Of a stretch of 64,000 nt of DNA, positions 1 through 28,399 are shown piece by piece. Source of the DNA: Blasia pusilla (taxonomy: Eukaryota); NCBI GenBank assembly GCA_050084515.1, contig CM114271.1, positions 9,300,001 to 9,364,000 of the forward strand, in the 5' to 3' direction. Both the position numbers and the translations under genes were made by a program. The notes below the pieces were generated by a model. It ran no database searches and was not told where the DNA came from. It saw nothing but the letters and a program-made list of their open reading frames with translations. Every line of letters begins with the position of its first letter. Position 1 is the stretch's first letter.

Positions 1-1
1 C

Positions 2-333
2 TGTAGGGCAGGATCTGATGGCATTAGGAGAGCATGCGGCACTTTCCTAAATAAGAACTGTAGAAGGAGTGGACGACCACTGCCTGGGTTTTGGGGACTC
101 AAAACCTTTGATCGTTTCACGAGGACTAGGGATCAATTGAAGTTCTTCTTCTGCCCAAATGAATATTGCGCTTTCCGGAAGTCTTATCCGGCTGCCATTG
201 GAGCTCCCGAGAATACCCCCACGATTTGGCCCATCGCCGCAGGCACGAACTGCACTCAAGACGAAGTGGACAATCTTACAAGTGCCGGTTTCAGACTCGT
301 AGACGGGGGAAGTTTGGAGCATGTTTACAAGTT
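2..333 (+). pseudogene. Cys-containing ORF fragment, probably the 3' end of a transposon gene, fused in frame to the ParB-MTase gene copy A
   Basis: The frame from base 2 is open (CRAGSDGIRRACG...KFFFCPNEYC...IWPIAAGTNCTQDEVDNLTSAGFRL). Similarity to the fuller copy (ORF 31503..32330) starts only at REKAIAID (~334), so 1-333 is foreign sequence. Its identity is inferred. Confidence 0.35.
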
Positions 334-1239
334 ACGGGAAAAAGCAATAGCCATTGACGATAGCCCTGCCCGTCCAACCGAAAGTGTTGAGATGCGGGAA
401 ATGTCCCCCATGAAGTCCGGGGACACAATCAACATAGTGGAAATGCCAGAAGTTGAAATCAATGACGACGAGGTCATGAGGACCGCCAGCGTGGAGATGG
501 TGGACATGGCCGAAGAAGCCAGAGAGCGGTCATTCTCGACTCCAAGCCTGACGGAGGACATCGACCTCTATCAGATCGACGAGTTCCTAGTCGATTTTCC
601 AGCTTCTATCTCATACAAGTTGGCTGGTCAAGAAACCGACCCAATTTTTGAGCGGGTAAGAGAGGATATGGGTTTTTTGAATTATGTGAATTGCAATTCA
701 TTGGGAATTCAGTGTAGCTTATTCATCTTGTCCCGGTTGTGACATGTGGTAAAGCAGATGGCACTCATGGAGGGCCACAATGCCCTGAGGATTCCACTCT
801 GCCGATTGCGGACAATGGAATACGTCTGCGAAATTCAGTCCGACGAGGACATCGCGAAGCTTAAACATTCGGCGGCGACAACATCCTACGTCGACAGCTT
901 TCCTCCCTTCTATGTTCAGCCTTACGACGAGCATGGAACCCAATCTCTGGTTATGGAGGAGGACTTGGAAAAGCTCGACACATTCTGGAGGATGAGAGAT
1001 CAGGATTTCAGAAGGCAAGTAGAGGGCACGGAATTCAGCTGGATGAGGAATCTGCATTTCTTCATCTGGGATGGAAATCACAGGTTCATGGCGTGGACCA
1101 AGTTTGCGGAGGAGCGGCCCAACTCCTTGGAGGCACATTTTTGCGTGAAGGCAGTGGTCCTTCACCCATTCCCTCATCACATGGCGAGGGTGGAGATGGC
1201 AATGCATGCCATGAACACGTGAGTATCTTTAACACTTAC

Positions 1240-1840
1240 GCAACTCGTCGGGACGGTTGTTGGGATGCTTTAACACTTACGCAACTCGTCGGACTCCAAC
1301 GAGTTGCTCGATTGATGAATGGGTTAGGTTTTTTTTGCCGAAAGAAACTCGTCGGACTCCGACGGGTTGCTCGACTCGACGCTTTTTCGGATGTTTTTTA
1401 AGAATGCAACTCGTCATACTCCGAAGAGTTGTTCGATTGATCACAGATTTAATTAGTTTTTGGCCCAAAGCAAACCGTCAGAGTCCGACGGGTTGCTCGA
1501 CTCGCCGCCTTGTCATGATGTTTTTTGAAGAATGCAACTCGTCGGAGTCCGACGAGTTGTTCGACTGACTGCAGGTTTATAATGTTTTTTGCCCAAAACA
1601 ACCCGTCGGAGTCCGACGGGTTGCTTGCCTCGAAATTGTTTTTGGCCAAAATCAACCCGTCAGAGTCCGACAGGTTGCTATGTTCACATTAGTATGTTCA
1701 GTTGCACAACCCGTCGGAGTCCGACGGGTTGAAACCAGGCATTAGCAAATCTGAATGCAATCCATCGGACTCCGATGGGTTGCATCATTTAGCTCGTTGC
1801 TAGAATCCGACCTTGAGCTGTGACGACCCGTCGGAGTCCA
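1240..1840. repeat. Array of CAACCCGTCGGA-N-TCCGACGGGTTG palindromes in the intron after the ParB exon
   Basis: About a dozen imperfect copies, e.g. caacccgtcggagtccgacgggttg near 1599-1623 and 1707-1731. Confidence 0.9.
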
Positions 1841-3249
1841 TCCCGGATGAAGCAAACCTTGAAAGTTCTGGAGATTTCGAGGTTTGGCTCGACGACATAT
1901 GGGACAAGCCAACCAAAAACCCAGGATTCAAGACCATGTTCAAGGTTTGCGTCCTCCCTCAGGCAGAGCTTGACGAAGAAGTAGAGGGGAACAAACGGGA
2001 TCAAGCGAAGAAGAAGCGAGATCTACAGGAGCAGACGGCCGATTCTGTTCGACTAAAAGCTGCCCAACGGATGGTCTTCAGGAACCTCGTCCAGTGTAAG
2101 AACGCAGGTACGTGGGGAAAATTACCGACAGCCTTGAAATTGTGGGCTTCGCCGCCGGATGGAGAGACATTCTCCATGTACGACATGGAGATGGGGCAGC
2201 ACATGTCCGATTGGGAGGTGGAGAATTGCCCCATTTGGCTCGACTTCAACGACCCTGAAGACATCACCAATAAGGATTTATGAGTGCTTCATGATGCAGT
2301 GGCCTCAGGACAAGACGACATCCCCAATTTCATCCAGCCTGAAGACTTCTTTGGAGGAGATGCAGAAGAGCAGGCCCACGAGACAGCTGAGTTGGCTTCC
2401 AAGGTCCGCACAGCCAAAGACAAATCCACATCGAGTCTCAAAGGCAAGGGGAGGGGAGGGAAAAATTCAAAGGCCGAGACTTCCAAAAGAGAGCCTGAAG
2501 ATGAGAGGCCAGAGGCAGAATCGTCCGGACGAGCGGGGAGAGAGGGTCAGACCAGGTCCTCGGCGAAAAAAAAAGCCACCAGAGTCTAGTCTCATAGAAA
2601 CCCCGACAAGCCGTCCCCAGACTAGAGAGAAGCGGAAGCAAGAGGTGCCCGGGTTGTCCCAAGGAGAATACAGTCCATCATCCTTGGGAAGACACAGACA
2701 AACAACGACCCGGACAAGCGTCCTCCTTCAGTTCACTCCTTTTCTGGATGAGCTGAAGAGCTTCAGTTCTCAAGCGTCGACACCAGCCATCGAAAAATTG
2801 ACAACGCTGGGACGGAAGCTCCAACAAAACGGGCACGTTGCCTGGACGGTGAATGGAGTGGTCGAAGAGGTTGTGGTGGATCTCTTGATCGCCGATCTGC
2901 CCTCGGGGTTGCAACTTTGGGGCGAGAATCCGTCGGATGAGGTACCTGAGTGGAATGTGCCGCTCTCTTATGACCAGATTGCGCTTTTGTTCTCCTTTGC
3001 AGATGCCTATGTGAGTGACAGGGGCTGCTTCTTTGTGTTGATTGGAGGGAGCGAGGACGAGCTCTTCAACCTCCAGTGCGTCAAGAGGTTGCTAAAGTGG
3101 AGGACGGCGCAATCGTGGATCATAAAAAACGAGTACCCACTCCGATCTGCGACGAGTCAGATTCGGGTAAGGCTCAATTCCTGTACTATAATTTCAATTA
3201 TTCTTTAATGATGTGTATAATGAGAGTCAATCTGGGTTTTTTTTGTCCG

Positions 3250-3640
3250 TGAGCAACCCGTCGGAAGGCGACGGGTTGCTGGCTTAGAGCAGCCCATGCT
3301 CGGTTGAGAGCAACCCGTCGCTTTCCGATGGGTTCCATCTTTCCCACATACACAGGGAAAACCGCGGTGTACCTGCAACCCGTCGGAACCCGACGGGTTG
3401 TAGTTGCTTTTGGTTTTTCCCAGTTGATTTTGGTTTTTGGATGCAACCCGTCTGATAGCGACGGGTTGCTCTCAAGCAAGCATGGGCTGCTCTAGGCCAG
3501 CAACCCGTCGCCTTCCGATGGGTTGCTCAATGAAAAAAACAACGGAGCCCGACGGGTTGTTTTAGTCCCTGACCAACCCATCAGAAGGCGACGGGTTGGT
3601 CCGGGAAAAAACAACCTGTCGGACTCTGACAGGTTGATCC
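3250..3640. repeat. Palindrome array (CAACCCGTCG-N5-CGACGGGTTG) in the intron splitting the MTase domain
   Basis: Repeated gcaacccgtcggaaggcgacgggttgc-type units between donor 3167 and acceptor 3715. Confidence 0.9.
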
Positions 3641-5574
3641 AAAGTCAGTTATTGAAAATTTTCTCAAGCCGACTTCTTTAGTTTCTGACATTGTTTCCAA
3701 CGTGTTGATTTACAGATGGACCACTCCTACGTCTACTGCTTCGTTCGGCCCGAGCACAATTTCCAGGTGTTCAAGATCCAGGATCTTGTGGATCCATGCT
3801 CAGATGGGTACAGCTTAGATAGTTTGTACAATTCCCCCCTGGGAATTTACGTGCAAGACAGTACCCCACTTCTGGGAGGAAGGGAAAAATCGCCAGCCCT
3901 AATGCAAACGCTCATCGAGCTCTGCTCAAGGCCAGGTGACTTGGTGTTCGACTTAGTGGGACTTTCAGGGGCAAGTATCAAAGGCGTCTGGCATAGTGGG
4001 AGGAATATTCCTTGCCTCGAGGGAAGGCAGGAACTGTTTGACCTTTGCAAGGAGGCAAAGGCAGAATACGAAAGGCTCGTTGGGGCGTACAACTCTCCAC
4101 CGAAGCCGAGAGCTCCGGTTCCAGACCCACCATTGGTAGTGACTCCATCGTCACTTCCAACGATTCCAAAAATCGGGAGGGCAAGGCCGAAAGTAATTTT
4201 GCAAGAGGTCTCGGACGATGACGAGTCAGTTCAAAGAACTCAACGACCTAGCTTGACTGCAGCGTTTGGAGTAGGGAGTTTCTTGATGATGAGGCAAAAG
4301 ATTTCATAGAATAGATCAAATGTACAGTTCCGAGTTTTTTTTGGATGATATAAATGAGAAGATTTTTTCGAACGATGGTGGTGCTTGTAAAAGTTTGCTA
4401 AATATTTTTTGTCTTTTCGAATGTGATCGTCTATGTTCTCCGCGGACTTCTATTTTGCAACCCGTCGGATTTCTCCTGCATGCAACTTTTCACTTTATGA
4501 CCACTACAACCCGTCGGATTTCTCCCGCTTGCAACTTTTCACTTTTTGACCACTGCACCCTTTTTACCACTTCCAGGCAACCTGTCGGATTCCGGCAGGT
4601 TTCCTGATCGGACTCTTTCCCTGCTGGTCCAACTTAAGAGGCAGTCTGGCGGGCTTCTTCCCTTGGCACCTTCCCCTCAACTCGTAAAGGCAGGCGTAGG
4701 CTTCTTTTCTTCTCTCAGACGTGTTGGATTCCTACTACCTGTGCGATTGCCATAATGGTATTACCGAGGACGAAGCAGATATTGATACTGGATGGGTGTC
4801 ACATTACAGAGCGTACAAGGTATACTGCCAAGGAAGGCGGTGGGACTCGAATCAGGTTACATGGGACCGTTATGGTGTACCTAGGGGGGGCCAAGGCTCT
4901 CGAATTCGCCAACATTTTCGATCCCCGTCTACAATCGGCCAGAGGAGCCACTTATATCCCATGACATTCCTTTGGTACTGTCACCGAGGAGAGTTAGGAG
5001 TAAATTTGTAGATGACGAGGGTGAAGAAATCATAGACTAGGTCAAATGTACATTTCCGAGGTTCCTTTGGAGGTAATAAAGGACGAGATTTTTTCAACCC
5101 ATAATGGTGTTTGTAAAAGTTTGCTGGAATTATTTTTTGGACTTGTGGATTGTGTTCTTTTAGCTACTCAGAATTACAATTCTACAACCCGTATGATTCC
5201 GACGGGTTCCAACTTTTTGCTTTTTGCCCACTGCAACTTTTTAACCATTTCCAAGCAAGCTGTCGGATTTCGAGAGGTTGACTTCTTGAGTGATCGGACT
5301 CTATCCCGGTGAGACCAACTTCTGACGCATTGTGGCGGGCTTCTTAACTTTTGGCTTGTTCCCCTACATTCGTCAAACCAGTTGTAGGCTTCTTTTCTTG
5401 TCTAAGATGTGCAGGATTCCTACTACCTGTCGGATTGCCATTTCGGATTCTCAACCTGTTAGATCGTCGTGGGTGCAGGGTGGAAGAAAATCACTTCTAA
5501 AAATCTTTCCTTTCTTATGGTGATCTTTCTTACGGGTTGGGAGGGGTGCAGCTTCTCGGTTTCTCAGCCTTAGG

Positions 5575-6810
5575 ATCTGATGTGTTCACATTTCACAAAG
5601 TTGGTCTTGAGCAGACACCATTCATAACCAACAGAAAGTTGGTTATGGGGCAATTTAGGGGAGGCCATGATGGAGGCAACAATCCTTGCAAAAAGAGAGG
5701 TTGGCATCCGGGTGATCCTCCAACAAAAATACCAAGGGCACTGCTTTTTTTTGACCGAGACAGGGAATGTTAAGAAACTTAGGCTCACATGGAGAGTGAT
5801 GGAAAAATGTTTATAGTGGTCTTATGATGTCTCCTTTTTTCTCGCCCCCAAGAAAGAGGAGGTTTTTTTAGGGCCAAATGTGGACCACTAAATACTCTCT
5901 TCTAAAGATTTCCTGAATTTGAAAGCAAACAAAAATTTCAAATATGTGAAAAAGTTTTGAAGAGAGGAGGCGGATTTGGCCCTTTTTTTTTAAGAGAGGC
6001 TCTCCTCTCTTCCTCTCCTCTCTTACTCTCTCCTGCCAGAATACCAGCCCCCTTTTTTTTTGCCCCCAGGAAAAAGGAGGTTTTTTTAGGGCCAAATGTG
6101 GACCACTACCTACTCTCTTCTAAAGATTTCATGAATTTGAAAGCAAACAAAAATTTCAAATATGTCAAAAAGTTTTGAAGAGAGGAGGCGGATTTGGCCC
6201 TTTTTTTTGAAGAGAGACTCTCCTCTCTTCCTCTCTTCCTCTCTTACTCTCTCCTGCCAGAATACCGGCCCCCCTCTTTACTCCAGACAGCTAACAATCT
6301 TTTGGTTCAATTATCGTCTCATGTGTTCACATTTCACAAAGTTGGTCTTGAGCAGACACCACTCATAACCAACAAAAAGTTGGTTATGGGGCAATTCAGG
6401 GGAGGCCATGATGGAGGCAACAATCCCTGCAAAAAGAGAGGTTGGCATCGTACCGATGCGCATCCGGGTGGTCCTCCAACAAAAATACCCATGGGCACTG
6501 CTTATTGTAGACCGAGACAGGTAATGTTAAGAAACTTAGGCTCACATGGAGAGTGATGGAAAAATGTTTGTAGTGGTCTTATGATGTCTACTTTTTTTTC
6601 GCCCCTAGGAAAAAGGAGGTTTCTTTACGGCCAAATGTTGACCACTACCTACTCTCTTCTAAAGATTTCGTGAATTTGAAAGCAAACAAAAATTCCAAAT
6701 ATATCAACAAGTTTTGAAGAGAGGAGGCAGATTTGGCCCTTTTTTTTTAAGAGAGACTCTCCTCTCTTCCTCTCCTCTCTTACTCTCTCCTGCCAGAATA
6801 CCAACCCCCC
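5575..6810 (+). repeat. Three tandem, partly truncated copies of the element's terminal segment
   Basis: The unit ending GAATACC(A/G)(A/G)CCCCC ends at ~6052, ~6273 and ~6810. Shared blocks (CAAATGTGGACCACTA, TTTTGAAGAGAGGAGG) recur in each. Confidence 0.85.
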
Positions 6811-7089: not shown

Positions 7090-7793
7090 TGCTAGGAGGT
7101 GTTATTCAAGCTTGGCGTAGACGAAGAATATAGGAGATGCTTGGAGAAGGAGGAAGTTCCTCGAGTGATTCTTGTTATGCATTCGGAGGATGCAGGAGGG
7201 CATTATGCAGTGAAGAATACTGTCAAGAAGATCTTGACTACACGCTATTGGTGGCCTACAATGTATTGGGATGTCAGGTTCTTCATCCAAAAGTGTGATG
7301 CGTATCAAAGAGCAGGAAGGCCAACAATGACTTCTTGCTGGCCTTTGGTATCTATTCTCCCTTTGGCCTTGATTGAGAAGTGGGATATTGATTTTGTGCG
7401 AACTATCTCACCTGCCACTAGGCAGACCCGCCGGAAGTATATCTTAATTGCTACAGATTAATGTACCAAGATGGTGGAAGTAGTAGCTACTCCCAAAGAT
7501 AATAGTGAGGCAATGGCCAAGTTCTTATATGAGATGATAATTACAAGATATGGCTGTCCATTGGAACTCGTAAGCGACCAAGGGACCCATTTCCTCAACA
7601 AGACGGTCGAAGTATTGACGGATCACTTCCTGATCAAGCATAGGAAGACTACACCTTACAATCCCAAAGCTAATGGGTTAATAGAGAAGTCCAATGGGTT
7701 TATTTGGAGGATTTTGAATCGCCTAATCGTCATATATTCATATGACTGGGATACCAAGATTCTTGCTGCACTCAGGGCCTACCTGTCGCGACC
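7090..7793 (+). pseudogene. Ty3/Gypsy integrase, 5' part (family 2)
   Basis: H..AGGHY...RYWWPTMY...CDAYQR zinc-binding region, KWDIDFV, LVSDQGTHF, TTPYNPKANGLIE core. Interrupted by an LTR after GCCTACC. Confidence 0.9.
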
Positions 7794-8784
7794 CTCATGA
7801 CCAAACAAGTGCCAAGCGGAACATCGGAACATTAGCGGGCTCACGCTAAGATGGTTTGCGCGTTGGAGTTGTCTCAAAGAGAAGACAAAGAGGCGACGCG
7901 CGGCGAGGAGTCGCGTTCAGGTGTTATGGTCGCGACTGAGAAACCTGGACCAAACGCGGAATGAGACTTGAAAGAAGTCGAGTCTAGGAAGTGGGTTGCC
8001 AAAGGAAAGATCCGGATGTGGAACGCCACTAGCGTTTGAGAGTTTTCGACTGTATTTATGGCCATAACTTTTAGCGCCAAAATGCGTTTGGAGCAAATAA
8101 GGATGCGTTGGAAAGCTTATGGATAGCCGGTCCAAACGCACCAAAGATCGCTGCAAACGCATAAGAAGCGGCCGAGATAAGACCCGAAAACGACTGTAAG
8201 TGGAGTCGGGTTGAGGGCCACAATGAAGGGCCCGACCCTCTTTTCCTAAAAGGGAAGGGTTATTGGAGAACCCCAGAAGTACTAGTAAGGGGGAAGGTCT
8301 CCGAGAGTGCTTGGAACCCAAACCCCACTTTGGGCGCCGTGGGGCGGCTCAAGGGCATGGAACAGAACGCGAGTTTGGGGGTTGGGTTGGAAAACCTGCA
8401 CCAAGTCCAGTGAGGCAATTTTAGACATCCCTCTTGGATTCCACCCCGCTACTCAATTACTTGGGTCTCGGTTCGGAACTCACCCGAGGACCGTTGAACA
8501 GTTGGGATCGCTAGGCGCGCAAGTGCCGTTTCAAATCCTTGGACTAACTAGAAAGTCTGTTCCAAGTCTTGAAGGACTTGCCATGTGTTGGAAGCTAGGA
8601 ACTAAGGAAGGTTGAGCTTGATGAGACGCCGAGTTGAGGACTCGGTGGGTTGGAATGCCGGTTGGCCAAACCCGACTAACGAGAGTGCGTGTTTGGGTGC
8701 AGATCGGCGATGAGTTCGTGACCTATTGAACGCACGCTTCCGCAACACTAAAGATTGACGTTCAAGGAGAGTAGGGGCGCGACA
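7794..8784. mobile_element. LTR (~990 bp), left breakpoint of the inverted duplication
   Basis: Termini TGTCGCG...CGCGACA; homologous to 62206-63207 and 24555-25245. Left flank CTACC and right flank AATAT do not match, so this copy is recombinant. Confidence 0.85.
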
Positions 8785-11700
8785 AATATCAACATCTATA
8801 TCCCATCTTCGCAAAACACATACAAATTTGCTTTTGACGGAATCTTGATGAGACCCTTCTCTCGGAATAATATATCTATTCGTTGATACCATACCCTTGG
8901 GGCTTGCTTCAACCCATACAATGCTCAATGTAGTAAACACACCTTCTCTTCTGATCCGGGTGTCTCAAAACCTGGTGGTTGAGATACATACACCTCCTCC
9001 TTGAGACTCCCATTCAGAAAGGCAGACTTCACATCGTATTGGTATACAGGCCAACGTCTTGTTCTTGCAACCGCTAGAACAATTCGAATGGCTGTCATCC
9101 TTGCAATAGAAGAAAAAGTCTCATATTAGTCAAAACCTTTTATTTGTGAGCATCCTTGTGCAACCAACCTCGCTTTGAATTTATCCAATGTACCGTCCGA
9201 CTTGTACTTGGTCTTGTACATCCACTTGGTGCCTATTATCTTCCTGTTCTTTGGCTTCTCAACCAAAGTCCAAGTTTCATTTCTCTGAATAGCATCCATC
9301 TCCATCTGCATGGCCTCTCTCCATTGAGGATGAGCAAGGGCCTCATCCAAGCATGATGGCTCTTCCATATTCAAGATCTCTATCATCAAGGTCGTGTTGA
9401 CGAGATGTACGGAAGCTCTATTATGCTCCTCTAGTATCCTGGATCTCCTTGGATATGTAACAACTTCATCAATTTTTGGTGGATCCTTACCATCCAAGAG
9501 CTGCTTTATCCACTTAGGGTATGACGACTGTAGTGGAAGAGCATGGTGCTCTTTGTAACCATCACCAAATTCTTCTTCTTGATGATCTAGTGTAAACATT
9601 GGTGGTGTGCTCTGTTGGGTTATCTCTTCGTTTGATGATAATGTGGACGGACCACTCATATCCACCACTTGACGAGGCTGTTCCCTGAACACCACATCAC
9701 GACTCACAAGCATCTTCTTTGCCTCAAGAGACCATAGGCAATAAGCTTTAGACTCATCATTGTATTCCATAAAGATACACTTCATGCTCTTGGACTCCAG
9801 CTTGGTCCTGCATGCTTCAGTAATATGTACAAATATCTGAAATGTTGGACTGATGGTACCTTACATGAGTATGATTGATGAGGATTCATGCCTTGCACTG
9901 ACTTGGTAGCACTTCTATTTAGAATGTAAACGGCAGTGTTAACAGCTTTAGCCCAAAATCCTTCTGTCAAACCTTTTGCTTTCATCATACATCTTGCCAT
10001 CTCCACCACTGTACGGTTTCGATGCTCAACAACTCTATTTTGTTGTGGTGTATGTACCATGGTTAATTGTTGCTTGATTCCATGCTCCCCCAAAAATTTG
10101 TTGAATTCTGTTGATAAGAATCATCCTCCTCGATCGGTGCAAAGTTTTTGTACCTTCTTTCCTGTCTCATTCTCAACCAACTTATGCCATACTTTAAATT
10201 TTCCAAAAGCGCTTGCCTTATCACGAAGGAAATACACCCACATCTTCCTACTATAATCGTCGACAACGAAAGAGAAGTAGAAAGAACCACCTAATGCCAT
10301 TGTTCTCATTTTACCACAGAGGTCAACATGAATAAGCTCTAGAGGAGCCTTTGCTCTATTTTTGGACTCTTGTGGAAATGATTGTCAGTATTGCTTGCCC
10401 ATCATACAAGCTTCACATGTATCCGACACTCAAAAAATTGTTGGTAAATCAACAACCATGCCAGATTTTTGCATCTAACTTAGTAAGGGAAATCTTAGGT
10501 GACCATATCTTTCATGTCACAACTTACTGCTACTAAGATCTATACCTACACTTGTCGTGAAAGCATACAACTCGTAGATATTTCCATGTCGTATACCTTC
10601 ACCCACTACTTTTCCATTGGCATCCTCAATGACTGCTCCAGTTTTCTTGAAACGAAATTCTAGGTCACGATCACATAATACTACTATTGAAATCAAATTC
10701 TGCTTCAACTCTAGTATGTACAGTACATCAGTTAACTTCTTTTTATCTCCTTTTTGTGAGACTAAAGAAATTGTGCCTTTCCCTTCTACAGGGCACTTTG
10801 CATTATTCCCAACAGTAGCAACGATGGGCTCCTATAGAGGCTGTAAGGAGCTATACCAATCCTTATGATTGGTCATATGTCTAGATGCTCCACTATCGAG
10901 CCCCCATGCATCTTCACTCTTTGACTTAGTGGAATGTTCTGCCTGCGTGAAAAACTCTCCGATTGCTATCCAAGCATCTACTTCATATTCTCCTAGTTCT
11001 ACAGAATTTCTAGACTCCTTCTTAGGTCTTAAACAACTGTTCTTCTCATCCAGACTCCTCTTTCTACAATCTTTGATAAGATGACCTAGCTTGCCACAAT
11101 AAAAGAATTTGAAGGCTTTCATTGGGAATTTCTTCTTGACATTTGAACTGTAATCCTGATTTCTACCTCTTTGTATGTTGGCAATAAATGCTGCATCACT
11201 TCCCTCTCTTGCTTTGAAGCGCATTTCCTCTTCTACCAACATTGCACTAAATTTTTCAAAAGTAAGCGGCGTGGGTCTTACTTGAGTATTCAATGAAGTG
11301 ACCAAACTGTCATATCTTGGAGGCAAAATCCTTATGCACCAACCTGCCAAATCTTCGCTAGAGTTTGAAATTCCTACGGATGCCATCTGATCTTGAAGAT
11401 TCTTGATCCTTGTCAAAAATTACTCTGCGCTTTCTCCTTCTGAAAATTTCTCGGACGTAAGCTGATTCTCTAGATTCTCCGAGTCTCATTCCTCCTTTCA
11501 TACTGACTCTTCATAATGTTCCACGTCTCAGCAACAGTGGTTGTATGTTGAATGAGAGTCATGAGAAAATCAATTATATTCGTGACAATCGCATATAGAG
11601 CATCAGCGTTTTTGTGTTTCCATGCCAACAATACAACAAGATCGATATCACCAGATGAAGATGAACATGCCTGCCACAAAGTAGCTTATGGATTCGAATT

Positions 11701-12331
11701 GACCCATGTGGCCCTCTCCCAGATCTCAAATGATTCGAGGAAAGTCATCATTTTGAACTTCCACAATGTATAGTTAGACCCATCTAACTTCCCTTCACCC
11801 AGCGGAGGAGGGTGAGCACGAACTAACAAAGAAGTAGCCCTCTCAAGATTTTGTGCAAACACACCAGATCGCCAGATATAAAATATTGGAAAACCTACTA
11901 CTCTGATACCATGTGAGAAAATAGAAAGTGACAAAATCACTGAAATCTTTACAAAACTTAGAGATACAAAGTGGCCTAGTCTGTCCGTGCGCTCACAAAA
12001 GAGCTTCAATGGAACGTGAACATGGAGATAACTCAACATACGAGAATGTGCTACCGTTGCGGCTCCGAACTATTTCACTACTCGGGAAACTAGGGTTTTT
12101 TATCTATTTTTCTTTGTTTCTATTAATAGAAAAATTTGCATCAGGATGCTCCGCACCCTGATGCAATATAGGGTTAGATAATCTTAGTAACGCTACTCCT
12201 AAAACCACCTACGTCATATTACTATGACTCCTTCAACGTCTAAATCGAAACCATCAATCTAGGCTTCTCCTCATACAAGGGGTTCGATCAGATTAATGGT
12301 GCTCAGAGAAGTGGATGTTGAGAATCCAACA
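8785..12331 (-). mobile_element. Ty1/Copia retrotransposon, 5' LTR plus gag-PR-INT-partial RT (decayed duplicate)
   Basis: LTR 12331-11912 (TGTTGG...CA), PBS TGGTATCAGAGT 11911-11900, zinc knuckle FYCGKLGHLIKDC, protease LDSGASRHM, integrase TPQQNRVVE, RT KFKARLVAQG; many stops. Confidence 0.93.
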
Positions 12332-13723
12332 CTTGGCCCATGACTCGCCATTTATGAATGAAAGGAAATTGTGAGTTGGCCCTAATCCTGGCAATGGCAT
12401 CCATCTCCGCGGTCTTTCCATCAAGTATTTATATTTGACGCAATAAGTTTTTGAAGCTTTCAGGATCAGCCAAAGTTGTTTCTCCTCAACTGCCATGATC
12501 TCCCCTTGGCCAGGGATACCCAGAAGTTGTTCACAAATTTGTGATTCCATTTTCAATTTGATAATACCGAGAAGTTGTTCATAAATTTGTGATTCCATTG
12601 TCAATTTGATCACTCCAGGCTTTGATCCTAGAGAATTTTTGTACACATCGGCCACTTTCATTTCCATATCCTCCTTGATGTGTCTCTGGATTGCATCTGT
12701 GACAAGATGAGTGTGAGACCCAACATGAATTTCCAGGCTTGTGTACTCAGACATAGAATTATAGTCGTGCACTATGAAAAAAGTATAAGCGGAAAATGCT
12801 CTAACATAAAAAAGGGAGGCTCAACAATGAGGACATCGATGGCCACTTGGCGGTATGGTCGTACCGATGGCGCAAGGAGTTTCTGCATTCTTATTGGGGA
12901 ATTGTGATGTATTCACTACTTTGTTCCGCCCTAGGAAGGGGCATCCTAAACTTCTACACTCTAAGGCTCCAACGCAGTGGCGACAAGATATAATCCAAGG
13001 ACCACCTAGGATTGAAGCGCTTGTCCGTTGCAGTTTGCATCATCGCCGAGAGTCCAATTTTCGGTCCATACCCTTCAAGCGCCCTCCATCTTTTTTCTGA
13101 GCATGACCGATAAGTGGAGGCAACTAAAATATACAGTTTCCATCATACGTTGCTGGTAGCTCATCCACGAGAATGTGCTTTAAGAGTTTCAAGGGAAGAG
13201 ATGAAAGCAAAGAATTTCCCGAAACTCCATGCAGGAACGAGTAAGCAGATGTTGAGTCTAACATGTTTCTAATAGATCTTGTGAGATCGACGACATCCGA
13301 AATGTACCCACCTTCAACTGCATTATTATGAGCTTGTGAGTTTGGAGTCGATGCTGGATCGGCGGAAGAAACCGTGCCAAACATGGAGCATGGAGCACTT
13401 GAAGATTTCGAACCATCTTTATGGGTGGAAGTGGGCCTCATAGGTAGGTCATAAACTCTGAATTGTCCATTGGAGTAGGGTAAGAGGTTTCACACTTTGG
13501 AGCCTCCAATCTCCGGTTGGACTATTTCACCAATGATGTCGTCCGTTCCATCAACCTTGACATAATGGGATACAAAGATGGTTCCAACCAGGAGCAGAAA
13601 TCGGAATGAAAGGAAATGTTCTTCAACAATTACATGAGTGCCACTAGGTTGGGCTCGAATTATCTCCGATTGAGGAAGGGCCGCTATATGACTGCCACAT
13701 GTGAGCTTCACATAATTTTCCAT
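12332..13723 (-). pseudogene. Cys/His-rich (GCM/WRKY-like zinc-finger) transposase-like gene, truncated by the Copia LTR
   Basis: Inverted duplicate of 57262-58657; begins MENYVKLTCGSH; homologous to ORF 33467..34024. Confidence 0.5.
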
Positions 13724-13979
13724 TTGGGTCAGACCAGAGATCTGATTCGCCCAAATAGACAAATAAGAATGAGAATGTTGAATTTATAGTGAGCAGTGTC
13801 CGTTTATAGTCTAACATGCAGTTGGTAGTTAGGTTGAACCATCGCCACTTGACTAGACCTGCCATAAAGGAATATTCAGAAATTCTTGTTCATGACATGT
13901 GGGGAAAGATCTCCTAGGGATCCTTCAATCTGTAGGAATCCAACGAGTTTAATAGTCAAAGAGCCCGTTGATTGTTGGG

Positions 13980-14830
13980 AAAATGCAACCCGTCTGAGTC
14001 AGACGGGTTGAAAGGTAGAATGCAAGGGAACTACAATCCGTTGGAGTCCGACGGGTTGGAAACCACCAGGTAGGATATCAATAGTACGACTCGTAGCAGT
14101 TGAATTTACTCGAGTTTGGCTGGGACAGTACGACTCGTCGGATTTCGTCCGTTCATTTTGCAATCAGTTGGATTCAAACGGGTTGCAATTGCAAAGGTCC
14201 AAATGTCTTGAGGTCGGATTCCATGGCTTCGTGGGAGCGGCAAATGGAATGGCGAATGGATTGGAAAAATGACCGGACCGTATTATGAGATACTCTTGCG
14301 CAAGCTGTCGGAGTGTGACAGGTTGTCCTCAGACCATCGTGCCTGACTCGTGCAACCCGTCAAACTCAAACGGGTTGCGCGGGCACCGTTTTGCCTAACT
14401 GGTGCAACTCATCGGACTTCGACAGGTTTCAAGAGTTGGGTAGGATTGGCCCCCCAGCAACCCGTACGACTCCGACGGATTGCATCAGTTAGGCAGGCTG
14501 GGTCCTGTGCAACCCGTCGAACTCCAACGGGTTGCACGAGTTAGGCAAGCAAGGTCCCGTGAAACCCGTTGGAGTCCAACGGGTTGCACAAACTGGGCAC
14601 GATGGACCTCGTACAACTCGTCACAGCTCGATGGGTTGCACAAACTGGGCAGGATGGTCCCTGTGCAACCCGTCGGAGTCCGACGGGTTGACTCCGATGG
14701 GTTGCAAATAGAGTCTGGGGCGTATTGCCCAAGCATTGTTGTTGTAACCCATCAAAACTCGACGGGTTGCAACCAGCCCACGCGGAACATGCATTGTAAG
14801 GGTCCACCATCGTACAACCGGTCAACGGTC
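13980..14830. repeat. CAACCCGTCG/CGACGGGTTG palindrome array upstream of the GCM-like gene
   Basis: Many imperfect copies, e.g. tgcaacccgtcggagtccgacgggttg near 14664-14690. Confidence 0.85.
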
Positions 14831-16100
14831 GCTGTCACACCAACGATTGAGTCCAACGACTCTAAAAGTATATAAGGACCACTTTCGAGGATTTTCACTT
14901 TTCCATTCTACGGTTTTCAACGGTGCTTTCAACTCCCCTCTTCACGCGAGTACCAAAACTGCCTTTCCAGTTTCTTAGACATTTCAACCGTTGATCGGTA
15001 TCTCTTCATTTGCGGGCTAGTGAAAGTGAAAGTGCTGGTCATTTTTTAAATACAGTAGGTGGCTTGGCCTAATTACTCAGACCTATCTAAACTCGTCGTA
15101 CTTAGGCCAGACAACAACGAGTGTTCTAAATTCAAATTTGGCCATAGGTGGGCTTGGGAACTGCATCCGCAGGTTTTCTAATCGTCTCTTTGAATCAGAG
15201 AGGGGTTTCGGGAAGACAAGTGCCGTTGGTTGAATCAGTCACACTTCTCGATCACTGAAACTGCTGCCAATTCTGCCTTCTTGAGATCATCTTTCCTTAA
15301 CCAAACGAAATGACTCGTGGCGCTGATACCCTCCAGGACTCCTTTGAGGCAACGTGTGCACAAAGGAGCAAATCGACTGCTATGCAAATTTTTAACGGTC
15401 ACGATGGCGCCAAGTGTATTATCGATGGAATTTTGTAATTCCTTTATTTCATTCCATAAAAATGCTTAAATATAGAAACTTCAAAACCATTTATTTTCAT
15501 TACTTTTCCCTCGGTTAATTAAGGTTGGAAAGACTGTGCCGAATGAATTTACGCTTTGATGCGTTTCATCATTCGGCCTTCATTACTTACTTATGAAATT
15601 TGTAATACACTGGAAATAAAAATTCATTGGACGATCAAATATATTGAAAAAGAGAAGGAAATAAAAAATTCATAGGACGATCAAATAAATTGAAAAGTAA
15701 AACGAAAGTATGCCTACATTATTTCATGGAATAATTATTCCTCTCTTTTCATTGTAATCTCGCATCTTTACCATAAAGTAAACACCCAAAATATCCTTAA
15801 GGGGAAAGCGAGTAGGAATTCAATTTCCTCCATGTCTTTCTTCATGGGTATTCTAGGCATCGACATGCGATGAACTATTTTTTGTAACTTTTTTCTAAGA
15901 GGAGTTAATGAATAACAAAATTTCCCTTTAAATTTGATTGAGTCCCAATAAGTAGCTTTCCATTTGCAAAAAAAAAGGTTTGTTATCTTTTGAAGGGGGG
16001 AAATTTTGATTATTACACATAAGCGGGGACCCTTATGTGTAAGGATATATGTATACTAGTAATAATTTATGTGACCCTTATGTGTAACGATATATGTGTA

Positions 16101-18929
16101 CTAGTAAGAATGCCCGTGCGATGCATTGGAATCAATCATTACATTAAAAAATAAAATTTTAATAATTTTTAATTAAAAAATGTGCCATGACCAAACCAAC
16201 TAGCGCGCACCCGGATTCGAACCCGGGGTGTTTAACGTCACGGGTTTGAATCTGGATGCGTCCATGGCATATTTTTGTTTGCAAAGTTATTGGTCAAAGC
16301 ATATGTTGAATTTGTGGTTTTGTTCACAGGTATTTTCAAGTCGTGTGAAAACGCTACCTTTCGAATATTGTGCAGTGATGTGATTATGATCATCGCTATT
16401 TATCCATGGAGTAACTGTTTGGGTAATTTGTGGATATTGTATGTTTTTACTTGTTGAGGTTGTAATCTCTCCGGAACCGGATATGTATCTTCCGAACATA
16501 GTAGTAACTATCCAAGAACTACACATCTTGATCCACCTTATGAAATGTGGAAAATCATTGAAGAACCGTCAAACGGAGTGAAAATTGAGGAGATAGAGTC
16601 AAGAGGTGTTTTAAATGGAAAATTATGGATTGCTACGTGTTGAACGATCACACAGCATTCGGCCTTGATTATGGGAAACGCTACAGGGTGAAAGGATTTG
16701 CTTTCCTTGCTCGAAGAAAGATTATCTCGTTAATCATTTAGCGTCGTCAAGATTGCGGAGACGAACAAAATAATCAATCCTTGGTTTTTAAGTCGAGGAA
16801 CAAAGATCGCTACTGCAGTTAAGATTGGAAAATCACGTTGTGCGCAAGGAGGGTCTGGAGCTAGCACTCACACATCTTGATGAGGTCCTCTAGTTGAAAC
16901 AAAAAATAAACCGCTCACGGAGGGAAAAAAAAAGCCTTGCACACAAGCCTAAGAGAGGACATCAAGGCCCTTGGGAGACCAATAGAAGAAGCAACCCACT
17001 AGGGATCACCCATTACTCAAGGTGTTCATAAGAAGCGGTTCTCGCCCTTTCGTCCTCTACCATAGATAGCTCCTAGCAATATGGAAAGCAACATGCATCC
17101 ATCCTAACCAGCGCTCTACAATGTCCATGACCACTGGGGAGACTTTGAGTCTTTATCCATTGCTCTAGGTTGCTATTACCTCAGGCCAGAGAAGAGGATT
17201 CAAGAATTTCGGTGATATGTACCGGATTCCAATCCAGAGGAATCGAATAGCAACGCAGTGACGTAAATAAAAGTGAAATCCGTAAAGAGCTGAAGCCTAC
17301 AAAACCTCAACGGTGCTGGTAATCTGCAGGGCATTGATTGAAACTTTAGAGGAAAGCCCACCAACAATAGTGCATTGCTCACACATAGCTCAAAATCAGA
17401 GTGCTGAAGCTCGTCTCTAAATCTCGGACGCCCAGAGTCGGTCGTCAAATTGGTCGATATAAAACAGATCAATGGGCCCTTACTACGCTATACTTCCTGG
17501 CCATGGGAAAGGGAAAAAGATTTTTTTCAAGAACAACACCCTACTACACAATTGTAAGCAACAAAGATTGATCTATTACTATTAGACGTAGAGAATCGGA
17601 GGAAGGAGAACTTAACCCGTGCAAGCATGGACACCCAAAATTACAGAGATTCAAAAATCACCCACTCCTAATCCATTCTCTTGTCGGATGAATAACTGTC
17701 ACAAACCACGGGCAACACACGGGCATTCTCTTCGACGCTAACAGACGATCGGATGACGCAATCCCCACCACGCCTCTCTATTGGCATAGACGATTGCTTC
17801 GTTGGATCCAAGGGCGGGAGTCAAAGTGTCCATGCAACAAGAGTAGTATGGGGTCATGAATGTGGGTTCTACGAGAGGATGAGTCATTTCACTCCAAGAT
17901 CTATACAAAAGCGGAGCTTCCTAGGGATCGTGAAGTAGGATAGAGTGCGAGACAAATAACATTAGGGTGTTTGATGCTTGGGAAAATGCCTTCACAGCCT
18001 GCACGCGAGGCCTCTTCCCCAAAGATCTCAACTAAACCCGACGCTCGTGGGAAGGATCTAGTTGTGCAGCCCAGTCTAGACGGATTAGACTCGAGGGAAT
18101 GGCAAAAGCCTAGCAAGCAACCGGCGAAGAGCACCCACATTCGGAAAACAAGTCACGACACTACAGGCGGCCTCGTAGCGAGCGGCAACAATTCTCTCTT
18201 TCTCTCAAATTTGGCTGAAATTCGCACCCGCGCAGAGATTTGGGTCGGGTGGAAGGAGCTGTTCTGACAGAGGCCTCTTGATGAACAAAAGACAGATCGA
18301 GATTTGGTTCTTATAAGAAATTTCCTCCGAGCTTGTGCAAACAATTGAATCAAAGACTCCTCAAAAAATCTTTGCATAAATCTTCCATTCGGGGATAGGG
18401 TCTTGGATTCCATCACCAGAATCCACAACCATAAGAATTAGGAATCCACAGCCAAAAGAATTTTACCTTGAAATTGCCTTCGCCCCTTTGTCGCGATTTC
18501 ACCACCTTGGGCAGAGTTTCACCACCTTCAATGCCTTTTCACCACCTCTTGTGTCACGTTGTTCAGATCCTCTGACGATAGTGTGAAGACTGCTCCAACT
18601 TAGAGAGAGCGCATATTTTATGGGCCATTCTAAATTTCTCTACTCGTCTAGTGAGCTAATAGGTTTCATATTACGGCTCGTTAGTTCAAAAGGGTGTGAC
18701 AACTTTCCCATCAAATAAAATCTTTGTGAAATAGGACCCCTTCAAATATAAGGTTGTCTAGAATTTCTAACTCTTTCGTGAAATAACATCCCCTCCAAAT
18801 ATACGCTCATATCCAATTTTTAACTCTTTCTCACAAGTGTATAGTTCCACTCACTACATCTGGGGGGCTTCACTTCTTTGGGGGAGTTACCAAAAGAAGT
18901 AACCCCCCCTCCTCACATTATAGTATAGA
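16101..18929 (-). mobile_element. Non-autonomous Helitron (2.8 kb)
   Basis: On the minus strand: A|TCTATACTATAATGTGAGG 5' end at 18929, 3' end TGCATCGCACGGGCATTCTTACTAG|T at 16101. Inserted between A and T; no convincing ORF. Confidence 0.85.
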
Positions 18930-19569
18930 TGTTACATGTCATAGGAATGACATGATCGGGAGGAAAAAATTGCGAAAACTTGTAGGCTTGGTAAAAATAG
19001 TGATAAATTCCAAAAAAATTTAATAATCATAAAAGTAAAATAAAATGGAAAAAGTCTAATTTTTTAAACCACTAAATTTTGAAAGAAAATGGGAGGGAAA
19101 AAAAACCTGCCTTTTCAGTCAAAAAATTGCCTAGATTTTATGGCCTCTCCCAATTGTTCAAAATTTGTGGGTGGCTAAAAGGGTAAGCTATAATGGGGTC
19201 GAGTCTCAAACAGAGCTACGAAGTTCAGCAGTTGATTTGAACGTGGAAAGTGTAAGAAATTAGAGCGGCTGATTGCTGAAGTGGAAGACAACATGCGTCT
19301 ACCCATAAGTACGCTTTGTCGAAGGCTCTTTATGACGTTTGACCATTGGAACGTAGTTCATGATTGTGAGCTGGTATTTGGCATTGATAAATGGATGGCA
19401 GTCCTGCCGACTTCCCACTAACACTTTTCTCCTTTTTCCTTTCTTTTTTACTTTCCACAGATTCGTCAGACTCCCCGAAAAGGAGGAGGAGAATCATAAA
19501 TAAGGAAACTCATTCATGAGACTCAAATGAAAGATTCTCTGAAGCACCGAACGATTAGCGTTGCGTACA

Positions 19570-22500
19570 TCTATACTATAATGTGAGGAAGGGGGGGTTA
19601 CTTCTTTTGGTAACTCCCCGTTCCCAAAGAAGTGAAGCTCCTCCACAAGTGGTGGTCTAAAATGTCTAAAATTTGACTGAAATTTTATTTAGACGGCCAT
19701 CTACTTGAGTGAGGTGAGAAGCCACGTTATTTTTGAACGAGCTACACGGCCTCTATTTACACAAGTGTGCATACGGTATTGGTTAGAGGCTTATGAGGTG
19801 GTCATCAACACAAAATCTTCCGAGGCTTCGGCTCTCACAAGTGTGCATATGGTACTGGTTCCAGGCTTGTGAGGCCCTCATCCGCACAATTGGTACCATA
19901 GTTACAGTAGTAAAAAAAGTATAATTGTGGAAAGTTACAGAAGATCTGGGAGAAAGTTGCAGTTGGAGCGCAAGTTGGAGCGAAGGGCAAGTTGGAGTCG
20001 TGGGTGGAAGGAAGGTGTGGTTGTATGAACGAAGCCTCGATCCGAAAAGCCATGTTCCGATCGAAAGGGGAGATTTGTGTTCCAATGTGAAGGTGAGCTT
20101 TTGTTCCCATCCGATTCAAAGTAAGCCCTGTTTTTGGTCCGAAGGTTAGATTTGTATTCGATTTGTATCCTTTCGAAATGCTCGATTCGTACTCGAACGA
20201 GTTGCAACCGATCGGATCCGATTACGTCATGGCTCGAAAATCGTTGAGATCTTGACGAAAGTGTTTCGATCAATAAAACACACGGTGACTCGGTGTGGAG
20301 AGTGTCTCCAAAATGAAAAAGCGAGAATTATCGCTTTTGCCATTGTTGCCCATCGATTGCACCTAAGGAGAGTGCGCATTTGCTCAGTGCTTGGAGAACC
20401 GGTTGGCGTTTCGTGAAGTCGCTATCGGTGGATCCTAGCAATTATGACGATGCACCTCGTAAGGGGATCAGAGAATTTGGAGGAGGTGCGTTTCACGGTT
20501 GCGCCAATGCCCAAAATTCATAATCGTGGGGCCTCGAATGTAGGCTAACAAAGATCTTTGTGTCGATTTAGGGCATGTGCAAATCTTTGTTAGTCGATGG
20601 ATTCGGCTTGAGTGTGGGACATTTCATCCGGCTAGAAGAGGGCGACGCGAATCTCACTCGGTGGGAGTCTGCGTGGTGCATAGGTGAATCAAATTCTGAG
20701 GGCAAAAGATATCAAGATCGCAGAAGATTCCTACGAAAGATTAGACCGATACGAATGGGTTCGAAAAGACTTTCCTTTTCCCAAACTAGAGCGAGCTCGA
20801 CCCCTGCATAGTGACTTTCTTTGTGTTTGGAACAATAGAGCCCTCGCTTCAACTTCACTTTCCAAAGCAATCACTTTCTGGTTCCTTCCCTTGATTGTCA
20901 TAGTAGAAGGTCAGTAATGCCTTTCAAAGTCGCTTTTGCCCGAGTGCGGTTGCTATGCACACATTCTGCGACTTTTGTAAGTAATTTGAGTCATGAAGGT
21001 CTACAAAGTGTCAGGAAGACACTTAGAATTGCGGAGACAGTTTGAACCGAAACATTGGTTTCATGAAAGCTTCTCGTAGTTAGAATCTTTGGCTTCCTTC
21101 GTTTTTATCCGTGGGTTTTGAGTTATGGCAAGAAAGAATTCAAGTTTTCACTTTTCATCCTCGGGTACTACGGTTGCAACGAATCTTGTCGCTTTTGGAG
21201 AGAAAGGGCGAACGGACAAAGATTGTGTGTCACAAGGTTTTTTTTTTCCTTCCTGCTGATATTCAAGGCTTGCAATCTAGAGGGGAAGACTCGCATGTAA
21301 GAATCAGAGACTGTAATAGACAACAAATTACTGACACACGATATTTTCGTCAAGAGGAAAAGCACTCCATTAACGGAAATAGTACCTATTGAGCCAGATC
21401 AATAGATAGCTCTCAGAAGAAAATTGCTCTTGGCTATGGCAGAGTGATGATCTTCTCATGAAGGGTAGTCCGCAGAGAGGGTTTAGGGTCTGAGTGACCA
21501 ACCACAACTTGCACACTCTGAGTCGCATAGAGAAGAATTTGACACCTTGGCTAAAACACGTTGAGGCAAGTTTGCGCCTTGAAAAATCCCACCGCCTGCA
21601 CCACCGGGATCTTGCCATCTTTATCGATATCCGCTCTTGAAAATAATCCTCAAAAGTACTGAGATTTGCCATTTCAAAGGTACATGGAACGATGGCGGTA
21701 CCGCAAGCAATGACAACAGTCAATCGATTAGCCTATACGATCCCTCGATAAGACAACAATCGACTACAATTGTTGTTCCTTGATATCCAAAGACCCCTTT
21801 CCACCGAAAACGACCGCGACGTTCGCACAAACCAATCACACGCAAGAAGGAAAACGCCATGATTGATTGAACTCGCCGATTCGCAGAGTTCCCGTCCGCG
21901 ACTCGCCTAGAGCCCGATGCGGAGAGCAGACCAAGATTGCTACCGGGACCTTGGACCGTTAACTTTCTCGCCACGTTCTTCTCTTCTCTATGCGCACCAA
22001 TGCAGCATTTCTATCCATCAATGCGGACTACATCTACGCTCCGAACGCGTATGTAGGGAGCCTTCGCACCTGCCGGTCAGGTTACCGGCAGGGGTTGGGG
22101 TAAGGCTAGGCAACGCGATTTTTTTTGGAAAGTTCATTCGTTTTGGGATCGGCAAATGAGAGTGACAAGAGCGATTCAGGGATCATTTTCGAGTCTGAAA
22201 TTTTACAATCAGGAATTCTCTCACACCACAAAATTTCATGGCCATTGTGAACTTCAAAGCGCAATACGAAGGCATATATTTATGGTGATTAATCTAAATT
22301 GACGTCTTCATGGCATATGTTATACAACAGAGGGTCCTGTTTCATCCGAAAAATCAAGAGATTCTTGTTGTGTGATTAGAATGTGGACAAACACAATTTT
22401 ATTGAATAGGTCATTGTTATGAATCGGAATTTTGGGCCGAAAACAACAAGGCATGTGGAGTATCACTTCGCAAGGTTACGTCTCCAACGCAACTTGGGAT

Positions 22501-23739: not shown

Positions 23740-24556
23740 CTAGTAAGGTGCCGTCGATGATGCACAGAAAACAATTTGTTTGAAGAGTTACTGTTTAGTG
23801 AAGAGATTTTCATGTTCACTCATGATCGTGCCTCCTTCTATTTCCAACACTCTCGTGTTTCTGTAATATAATTTCAAATTTTATTTCATTCAAGTATTGT
23901 TTTATATACTACATTTCGTGTGTAGGCACCGTCCTTATTTGAATGTTCATCGCTTCCAAGGGTAATGTGGATGGAACTTCTCTTCCCTACTCTAGATAAT
24001 GCTTCATACAATTGATCGTGAAAAAATACATGAGTAGGCAAGTAAATGCCAACATTTTGCAAAGTTTGACCTTGAGACTTATTAATAGTCATAGCAAAAG
24101 TTGGGCGAATAGGGAATTGAAACCTACGTAAATCAAATGGCAGACCAGAATCCGATGCAATCAATGGAATCCGTGGAATAAAAACTCGATCTCCAATATT
24201 CTTCCCGATAATAATTTCGCCATCTATACAATGTTGCATAACTCCAGGAATCACCAATCTCATCCCGTGTGCTTGTCCTTGTGACCCATTCATGTTTAAA
24301 CGATGCGGAGGCCAGAAGGCAAGCATGTATTCAAAAATTCCATTGGATAGATATGACTCATCCCCTCATTTGGAATAGAGTCGACGCTAAGGTAAATATG
24401 CTCTTGTACAATGTGTAATGAATTCGTGAGAAACAATAATGTATTAGTAAAGATAGTCAGTAAAACAATCCTAAACCCTAAAGCCTAAGAGAAAAAAATC
24501 CATGTAGAAGATGTATGTAGGTTAAGAGAAAAAAATCCATGTAGAAGATGTATGTA
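23740..24556 (-). mobile_element. 3' fragment of an autonomous Helitron (PIF1 helicase C-terminus and CTAG end)
   Basis: ORF 23886..24326 has RRFQFPIRPTFAMTINKSQGQTL...LYEALSRV...TRNVVYK; inverted copy of ~49670-50459. Confidence 0.9.
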
Positions 24557-25245: not shown

Positions 25246-26253
25246 CTACCGAACGGCAGAGAAAGTCACTACCAGGTATACACCATTCTATTTGACATAT
25301 TGAATTCAACCCCTTGTTCCAATCGAATGGGATGCGCCCACCTACCAAATTTTGGAAGAGGAGAGAAATGACGAAGAGTTGATTGTCACTGAAAAGAGGA
25401 ACGAGGACTTGGTAACTATGGAGCAGGCAAGACATCTTGCTCTTGGCCATATGAAGACTCTCCAAACCCAGAGAAAGAAGTGCTATGACAAGAACTTGAG
25501 ACCACAATCAATTAAAGAAGGAGATTTGGTGCTGCTCTATGATAATCATAATCTGAAATTCCTAGGGAAGCTAAAATTAAGTTGGATGGGACCTTATCGA
25601 GTCCTATAGATTTATGAAAATGGTTATTTACAACTAGAAACATTAAGAGGAGAAGCATTTCCAGAAAGAGTGAATGGCATGCATGTGCGAAGATATCATA
25701 CATCCGACTGAAGACTGAGGGAGGGGGTAAGGAAGAGGTGCGGTAAGAAGAGAGGAAGAGAGGAAGAGAGGAGAGATGAGAGAGGAGAGAAGAAGAGAGG
25801 AGATAGGATAGAGGAAACTACCTTCAACCCAAAGAGATATTTGTTTTTTGAAGAGAGTTTCCTATGATTTGAAGAGAGTTTCCGTTGGGTTGAAGAGAGG
25901 AAACTTTTTGTGTGATTTTTTTTGCACTTTCCTTCTCAATTCTTAAGCACTCCCACAGATTTTTTTTCTCTTCCAAATTTTAGCAACCCATGTGAGTCTG
26001 ACGAGTTGCAATTTGCACAAAAATTAGAAAACTGAAAAATCAGTGGAATCATAAGTGTGGAACCAATCACTTTTTCCATCCAAGGTCTGGAAAAAATCTA
26101 TCATTTGCCCCGGGCTGAGTAGAGTTCAAGCTCAAAACGAAGGTTCTGGAAAAATGAAAGTACACTCTAAAACCTCATTTTGCATCCTCAAAGTGGTTTG
26201 TTTAGAATACTTTGCACTTCTTTGAGGGAGAGAATTGGTTCATGGATTCCTAC
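25246..26253 (+). mobile_element. Gypsy family 2: integrase C-terminus, PPT and probable start of the 3' LTR
   Basis: Continues the 7090-7793 frame (AY|RTAEKVTTRYTPFYLTY). GPY/F module KLKLSWMGPYRV; purine tract GAGGGAGGGGG ~25717-25727; cut at 26254 by the DNA-element terminus. Confidence 0.8.
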
Positions 26254-28340: not shown

Positions 28341-28399
28341 TCAATGGTGGGTGATATTCCCCTCTGATACAATCCTGCACATCCAAACTCAACCCGTCA

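Follow-up and report, generated by a model that had tools for sequence, protein, structure and literature searches.

Arrays of a fixed palindrome inside a Mutator-like element of Blasia pusilla as putative parS-like sites for its ParB/methyltransferase-like accessory protein

The DNA analysed here (the window) is a stretch of 64,000 nucleotides from Blasia pusilla (GenBank assembly GCA_050084515.1, contig CM114271.1, positions 9,300,001 to 9,364,000 of the forward strand). It contains scrambled pieces of a ~12.5 kb Mutator-like transposable element (MULE) with two divergent genes, one for a transposase and one for an accessory protein that is predicted to combine ParB-type and methyltransferase-like domains. 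Palindromes that recur across the window, 17 of them between positions 1240 and 3640, are internal non-coding parts of this element. The features are listed below, with domain names as predicted.

1–6052, plus strand: 3′ part of a rearranged element copy A, ending at the conserved right end ...CCAGCCCCC
2–325, plus strand: inverted fragment of transposase exon 2, joined to the accessory gene
356–655, plus strand: 3′ part of accessory exon 1, acidic N-terminal region
758–1219, plus strand: accessory exon 2, ParB/Srx nucleotide-binding domain with WDGNHR (Box II, GxxR)
1282–1839: intron array, 9 palindromes and one cut by a deletion; intron spliced in RNA on copy L017
1834–3166, plus strand: remaining exon 3, with helical region, linker and first methyltransferase-like half with DLPSG
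3254–3636: intron array inside the methyltransferase-like domain, 8 palindromes
3716–4225, plus strand: exon 4, second half of the N6/N4 methyltransferase-like domain
4458–5280: duplicated block of the 3′ region with 5 degenerate palindromes
12333–13723, minus strand: transposase fragment of a divergent subfamily, 67–79% amino-acid identity to the main family
13986–14769: array of 12 palindromes in the promoter of the divergent copy, spaced mostly at 52 bp
25735–26271: left end (GAGGTGCGG...), whose only subterminal palindrome lies at 25984; also the right end of a copy on the minus strand
27401–31011: intron arrays of scrambled copies, with 4, 8, 6 and 6 sites
31029–32219, minus strand: accessory exons 1 and 2 of another copy
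32603–33162: array between two divergent promoters, 8 palindromes, ~67 bp apart
33467–34012, plus strand: N-terminal transposase fragment, joined by rearrangement to the accessory last intron
34121–36053: last-intron array (6 sites) and 3′ sites (4) of the copy joined at 33467–34012
56230–56999: duplicate of the array at 13986, 12 palindromes
57262–58656, plus strand: duplicate of the divergent transposase fragment, with GCM-like zinc domain

Palindromes were scanned for as two 10-bp arms flanking 5 free bases, with at most 5 mismatches. This yielded 89 palindromes in the window against 0.1 in shuffled sequence, which bears out the initial annotation of recurrent palindromes with fixed geometry; exact copies number 3,824 genome-wide, while the reversed pattern has none. 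When 533 sites from 17 element copies were profiled base by base, the full motif emerged as GCAACCCGTCGG-ANT-CCGACGGGTTGC. The 5-nt spacer annotated earlier holds for 306 of 320 paired arms under the 10-bp arm definition, but the extent of the motif needed correction to 12-bp arms around a 3-nt centre. A further 141 left arms lacked a partner at up to one mismatch. Spacing between sites is longer than first given: the earlier range of 40–60 bp fits only 32 of the 74 gaps in the window, the median is 59.5 bp and 61 gaps fall within 48–71 bp. Some arrays have regular periods of 64, 67 and 52 bp. We do not claim helical phasing, as periods are 52 or 63–64 bp in some arrays and 57 or 65–69 bp in others.

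The sites avoid coding sequence. None of the 89 window palindromes overlaps the 10,145 bp of family exons located by tblastn, in agreement with the absence from exons reported at the outset, and all 533 sites in the 17 copies lie outside the six exon intervals. Between arrays of the element consensus, arms are 0.83–0.93 alike (values partly fixed by the 5-mismatch cut-off), whereas flanks are at background identity (0.28–0.31); the description of conserved arms with divergent flanks therefore stands. In the last-intron array the corresponding values are 0.97 and 0.33, and within some arrays the flanks are related (0.43–0.51). That array (consensus 9733–10094; window 3254–3636) is also a loose inverted duplication with ~80% self-match, a palindrome of palindromes. 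Confinement was checked on the first 50 exact sites listed on contig C1, all of which lie within 1.5 kb of family exons, divergent subfamilies included; no free-standing copy occurred among these 50, nor any sign of the unrelated dispersed repeat that had been named as a refutation. The arrays annotated at 13980–14830 and 56170–57000 proved to be one array counted twice, since window positions 7784–19570 and 51470–63207 form a 97% inverted duplicate carrying the divergent transposase copy, its array and a copia-type long terminal repeat (LTR) element.

Comparison of genomic stretches delimited the element as a unit of ~12.5 kb with sharp, constant ends; exact left ends number 812 and exact right ends 561 genome-wide. 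Ends on contig C1 were paired by distance, with copies chosen rather than random, and 18 of 23 such pairs are flanked by a target duplication, of 9 bp in 15 pairs (4 with one mismatch) and 10 bp in 3. These lengths fall within the 8–11 bp range of Mutator target-site duplications (PMC6446971). The element has no long terminal inverted repeat (TIR), the ends sharing only G-rich termini and GA-rich subterminal repeats, and thus fits the non-TIR MULE type. A majority consensus was built from 17 end pairs of 11.7–12.9 kb, with copies 87–96% identical to it. Its open frames give the two divergent genes, with the transposase on the minus strand; no further long coding frame was assigned in the 12.5 kb, and no ParA partner gene appeared there. 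Family copies are often inserted into, or back-to-back with, one another (L022–L023, L006–L007, L020–L021) and are apparently clustered on C1 near 8–11, 42–50 and 55–56 Mb. One 181-bp end-only derivative (L063:283–463) has a 9-bp duplication and no palindrome; as a single copy, it is uninformative on whether the arrays are needed for jumping.

Of the 41 sites mapped on the consensus, one lies close to the left end, seven are in the transposase intron and 11 occupy the stretch between the genes; two introns of the accessory gene have 11 and 7, and the 3′ region has the remainder. The ends carry no array: a lone site is found 200 bp in from the left end, and the last ~780 bp before the right end are free of sites. 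The window copy of the accessory gene is damaged, in that the intron at 1240–1840 has lost its 3′ end together with ~237 codons of the next exon, and the DNA-binding part of exon 3 is deleted (1834–3166); the middle exon is intact in copy L035.

Transcription was followed with RNA from three runs compared with copy L017, on which 153, 249 and 179 reads fell on the expected strands. Most were 90–95% identical and hence derive from other copies. Seven reads span the transposase intron (CT..AC) and seven the array intron of the accessory gene (GT..AG), whereas no splice joint was listed for the third array intron in these runs. Read depth between the two genes was near zero.

The N-terminal part of the transposase contains a Cys/His zinc domain, probably of WRKY-GCM1 type, as suggested by GCM/FAR1 Atlas leads (scores <0.9) together with the alignment. 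The GCM-like protein of the initial annotation corresponds to this part of the Mutator transposase and is not a separate gene. A SWIM match (E 0.0026) stays below the Pfam cut-off, and D, D, DxxH and E residues, read by eye, fit what we take to be the Mutator pattern. Pfam scans of the element proteins named no MULE, GCM or ParB family, and sequence searches of the PDB with the transposase and both alignments returned nothing at E <0.1. The layout of WRKY-GCM1, DDE and SWIM domains has been given for MULE transposases (PMC1702500).

The ParB exon of the accessory gene has 123 relatives in a HMMER search, and named homologs come from Riccia sorocarpa and Adiantum nelumboides; a word-index homolog search with the same exon for longer proteins found nothing. 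Box II reads GN[HQR]R in 95 of the 123 homologs and WDGNHR in the window copy, GxxR being the ParB nucleotide-binding motif (PMC12704722). Folds were compared using AlphaFold2 models of two Riccia homologs, ~35% identical to the element protein in the ParB exon. The N-terminal domain matched KorB (Z 8.3, root-mean-square deviation (rmsd) 5.9, 137 aligned), PadC (Z 7.6) and pNOB8 ParB (Z 6.5). The helical region that follows matched the ParB–parS DNA-binding domain 6s6h (Z 5.5), Spo0J (Z 4.6, rmsd 3.1, 92 aligned) and SopB (Z 4.1), with four ParB-family DNA-binding-domain entries in the top 50 (Z 4.1–5.5, not above the helical background). ParB proteins filled the top four Foldseek rows. The C-terminal domain matched beta-class amino-methyltransferases (CcrM, E 0.008; MboIIA, Z 6.5), and PF01555 matched P0126 at E 5e-5, below the cut-off. 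Together, these comparisons predict nucleotide-binding and DNA-binding domains, both of ParB type, followed by an N4-cytosine/N6-adenine (N4C/N6A) methyltransferase-like domain with a degenerate catalytic motif. Families differ strongly in one helix, presumably the recognition helix, located ahead of a conserved (V/I)xNP motif. Atlas neighbours of window positions 743–1219 include fungal DUF3723 clusters, possibly a further eukaryotic ParB-like family.

Relatives of the element were found in a metagenome scan, in which the best 80 of 182 loci were kept and 53 remained after merging duplicates. At 18 of the 80 loci the upstream opposite strand encodes the same transposase, and weak methyltransferase-like matches lie downstream at 11. 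A palindrome of their own occurs at least three times in 20 of the 53 loci, twice in 4 and at most once in 29; in 530 shuffles no locus rose above one site, with the motif list drawn from the same loci. An unseeded palindrome scan of the loci had null maxima of 0–2, and a generic scan of 16 longer blank loci added two arrays. The relatives' palindromes represent at least eight other sequence types, among them CCAACTTTCGG-N2 in 10 loci, TGAGGTGCCG-N4 with 14 sites in L105, GGTATTGGCGG-N2 in L098, AGCATTCGG-N2 in L111 and, elsewhere, AGCTTCTTTCGG-N2. An inner CGG..CCG core is common to several of them and to the Blasia pusilla motif. As in the Blasia pusilla element, the arrays precede the ParB gene and also occupy non-coding blocks downstream. 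In a ParB tree built without rows under 110 residues, the CCAACTTTCGG class forms one clade (100/98), and palindrome classes track ParB clades. Beside its main array, L098 has a second palindrome type without a spacer, AACTTCCACTCGA (L098:1251–1579), and a recurrent GGTCGGGAGTCAAACT-N3 palindrome in L125, L126, L155 and L164 is part of another inserted repeat. The L105 palindrome with its spacer resembles the left terminus of the element, GAGGTGCGGTAAGAGG (L105:1752–5700 versus window 25735); this likeness, noticed afterwards, may be fortuitous or may hint at a possible origin of arrays from end sequences.

We consider it probable, with moderate confidence, that the palindromes are parS-like sites putatively bound by the element's own ParB accessory protein, in line with the dimeric element-encoded protein of ParB type suggested in the initial annotation. 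Several lines of evidence point this way: arms and spacer are fixed while flanks are unrelated between arrays; the sites are confined to non-coding parts of an element whose second gene is predicted to hold folds in ParB order; and relatives have their own palindromes in the same positions, in classes that follow ParB clades. In addition, the arrays are internal, like VANC sites (PMC5735166), and inverted-repeat arrays accompany a ParB gene in the red algal Plavaka elements too, with a transposase of another superfamily (10.1101/2025.02.11.637652).

Several observations weigh against this assignment. No array of at least three sites was found at 31 of the 53 metagenome loci, many of which are short or decayed. 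Motif and ParB clades agree through common descent, and the transposase accompanies both; since kin share palindrome labels, co-evolution is not proven by the agreement. Fold scores are middling throughout, no Foldseek match reached E 0.001, and the Z values of the DNA-binding domain are within the range of common helical bundles. The models are of the Riccia homologs and not of the element's own protein, and sequence-profile searching of the PDB found no ParB. The fold scores nevertheless carry weight because consecutive ParB domains appear in ParB order. The catalytic motif of such methyltransferases has the consensus (D/N/S)PP(Y/F), whereas motif IV reads DLPSG here, (D/N)xP[ST]G in Riccia rows and DVPFG in Adiantum. 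Activity of the methyltransferase-like domain is therefore doubtful, and so is the earlier suggestion that the palindromes are methyltransferase targets. The active MpDN4MT1 carries TSPPY (bioRxiv 10.1101/2021.02.12.428880), and inactive transposon methyltransferases are known from DIRS1 (PMC4738411). Last, transitions at CG and CHG are ~3–4 times above those at other bases throughout the element, motifs included. In these statistics, for which the copies are not independent, CG decay in motifs is close to that in exons (0.049 versus 0.059, p 0.22) and CHG decay is close to that in other non-coding DNA (0.055 versus 0.057, p 0.30), so that present copies are not clearly shielded; CHG decay is lower in motifs than in exons (0.055 versus 0.075, p 0.001).

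If the accessory protein does bind these sites, a dimer would read the two arms with one recognition helix each, which would fix both sequence and spacing. With its sites clustered, the protein would then occupy the surroundings of both promoters and the length of the element in a family-specific manner. More speculatively, as for ParB and KorB, nucleotide binding may close a clamp, which would spread outwards from the arrays to cover both promoters and the body of the element. The most likely output would be family-specific self-recognition that keeps both genes expressible against host 5-methylcytosine (5mC) silencing, or that autoregulates them, and the methyltransferase fold would mark bases or merely shield them. 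Clamp closure, spreading and anti-silencing are extrapolated from ParB, KorB and VANC. Granted ParB-protein sites, we regard an anti-silencing purpose as evenly balanced. The complete scheme strikes us as unlikely: in a Mutator lineage of early land plants, a nucleotide-gated ParB sliding clamp would load at family-specific palindromes in eukaryotic chromatin and cover the 12 kb element by spreading, and its methyltransferase fold would block 5mC silencing by writing N4-methylcytosine or by shielding cytosines. A clamp that functions in chromatin would bring ParB sliding into the eukaryotic nucleus and open a new anti-silencing route; should the scheme hold, a recognition code could be read from the hypervariable helix and the palindrome series, and the two would make up a portable module for epigenome targeting.

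Among the alternatives, the one that survives best makes the transposase the binding protein: its GCM-like zinc domain would recognise the sites, in the service of autoregulation or synapsis. The WRKY-GCM1-type domain and the likeness of the L105 palindrome to the left terminus speak for it, as does the AtMu1 transposase, which binds and activates its own copies (10.64898/2026.08.24.746577). Yet AtMu1 transposase and TnpA bind termini (10.64898/2026.08.24.746577), where our palindromes are nearly absent and the two ends share GA-rich repeats instead, and the pairing of ParB with arrays recurs with an unrelated transposase (10.1101/2025.02.11.637652). A protein search of the Riccia transposase against the genome recovered the same family only, with no ParB-less control family, so co-occurrence cannot separate ParB from transposase. 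On balance we judge transposase binding improbable.

A role of the palindromes as structures (RNA hairpins that feed or evade small-RNA pathways, or DNA cruciforms) or as host-factor sites is less probable still, and we give it little credence. Three arrays are intronic, two of them seen spliced, and six symmetric double changes occur among the 41 consensus sites, but 54 changes are one-sided, and a fixed sequence and spacer length are unneeded for a hairpin. One main array sits between divergent promoters and is essentially untranscribed, which makes the RNA hairpins of the initial annotation unlikely, and a host factor leaves at least eight family-specific sequences unexplained. Least probable of all is that a short neutral repeat was amplified within the element through local duplication and slippage, or that the palindromes are recombination sites: the related flanks and regular periods mean that tandem duplication did build arrays, and the motifs decay like other methylated DNA, but arms far exceed flanks in likeness in the last intron, differing palindromes occupy the same positions in many lineages, no free-standing copy was among the 50 checked, and recombination sites are rejected because the ends of rearrangement junctions show no enrichment in arrays (8 of 46 versus 19.5% expected, p 0.85).

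Elsewhere in the window, PIF1 helicase pieces lie near the inverted duplicate (49007–50312 and 23886–24365), and positions 36680–48034 hold pieces of a Gypsy-type LTR retrotransposon with strong strand skew.

The element resembles several known systems. Like ParB–parS, Noc–NBS and KorB (PMC12704722), it would pair palindromic sites with a GxxR nucleotide-binding domain followed, as predicted, by a helical DNA-binding domain; unlike bacterial ParB–parS, it has no ParA partner seen, long helical insertions, and longer sites with an odd centre. MpDN4MT1 of Marchantia has a beta-class amino-methyltransferase fold, also in a liverwort, but is a host gene with an intact TSPPY, whereas the element's domain has DxP[ST]G, is ParB-fused and is mobile (bioRxiv 10.1101/2021.02.12.428880). 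Capture of methyltransferases by retrotransposons is known (PMC5890265).

VANDAL elements of Arabidopsis are likewise Mutator elements with short or no terminal repeats and family-specific tandem motifs in intronic, intergenic and terminal non-coding regions (PMC5735166), and motif arrays in internal non-coding regions are a VANDAL trait present here. VANC motifs, however, are 8–9 bp long and not palindromic, and VANC function is demonstrated while that of our element is inferred (PMC5735166). VANDAL carries VANC, whereas the second gene here is ParB/methyltransferase-like; Pfam scans of the element proteins gave no VANC or PMD match.

Sola1-1_Ec32 of Ectocarpus likewise has a ParB-like and N4C/N6A methyltransferase protein, of ~1,100 amino acids and transcribed opposite to the transposase; it differs in its Sola transposase and brown algal host, and the main text of its description mentions no palindromic sites (PMC12477816). 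In the red alga Bostrychia, Plavaka elements have tandem inverted-repeat arrays adjoining the ParB–oxygenase gene PAG3, for which self-binding and self-modification were proposed, and accessory-gene homologs also occur in Chondrus Mutator elements (10.1101/2025.02.11.637652). The same source describes VANDAL as the sole transposon known to bind and modify its own sequence. Plavaka differs in its fusion of ParB to a 2-oxoglutarate (2OG) oxygenase, in having the methylase as a gene of its own and in its EnSpm-type transposase (10.1101/2025.02.11.637652), whereas the Blasia pusilla element is a land-plant Mutator with ParB fused to a methyltransferase fold and arrays over promoters and introns. 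Our literature search, which covered few subscription papers, found no description of this element and no land-plant case. ParB self-binding by transposons has thus already been proposed for algae, and never tested; the land-plant variant with protein–site pairs is new. It is a high-copy case, with 812 exact left ends, a precise site, an intact middle exon in L035 and spliced transcripts, and its at least nine protein–palindrome pairs across lineages make the algal proposal directly testable by cross-binding.
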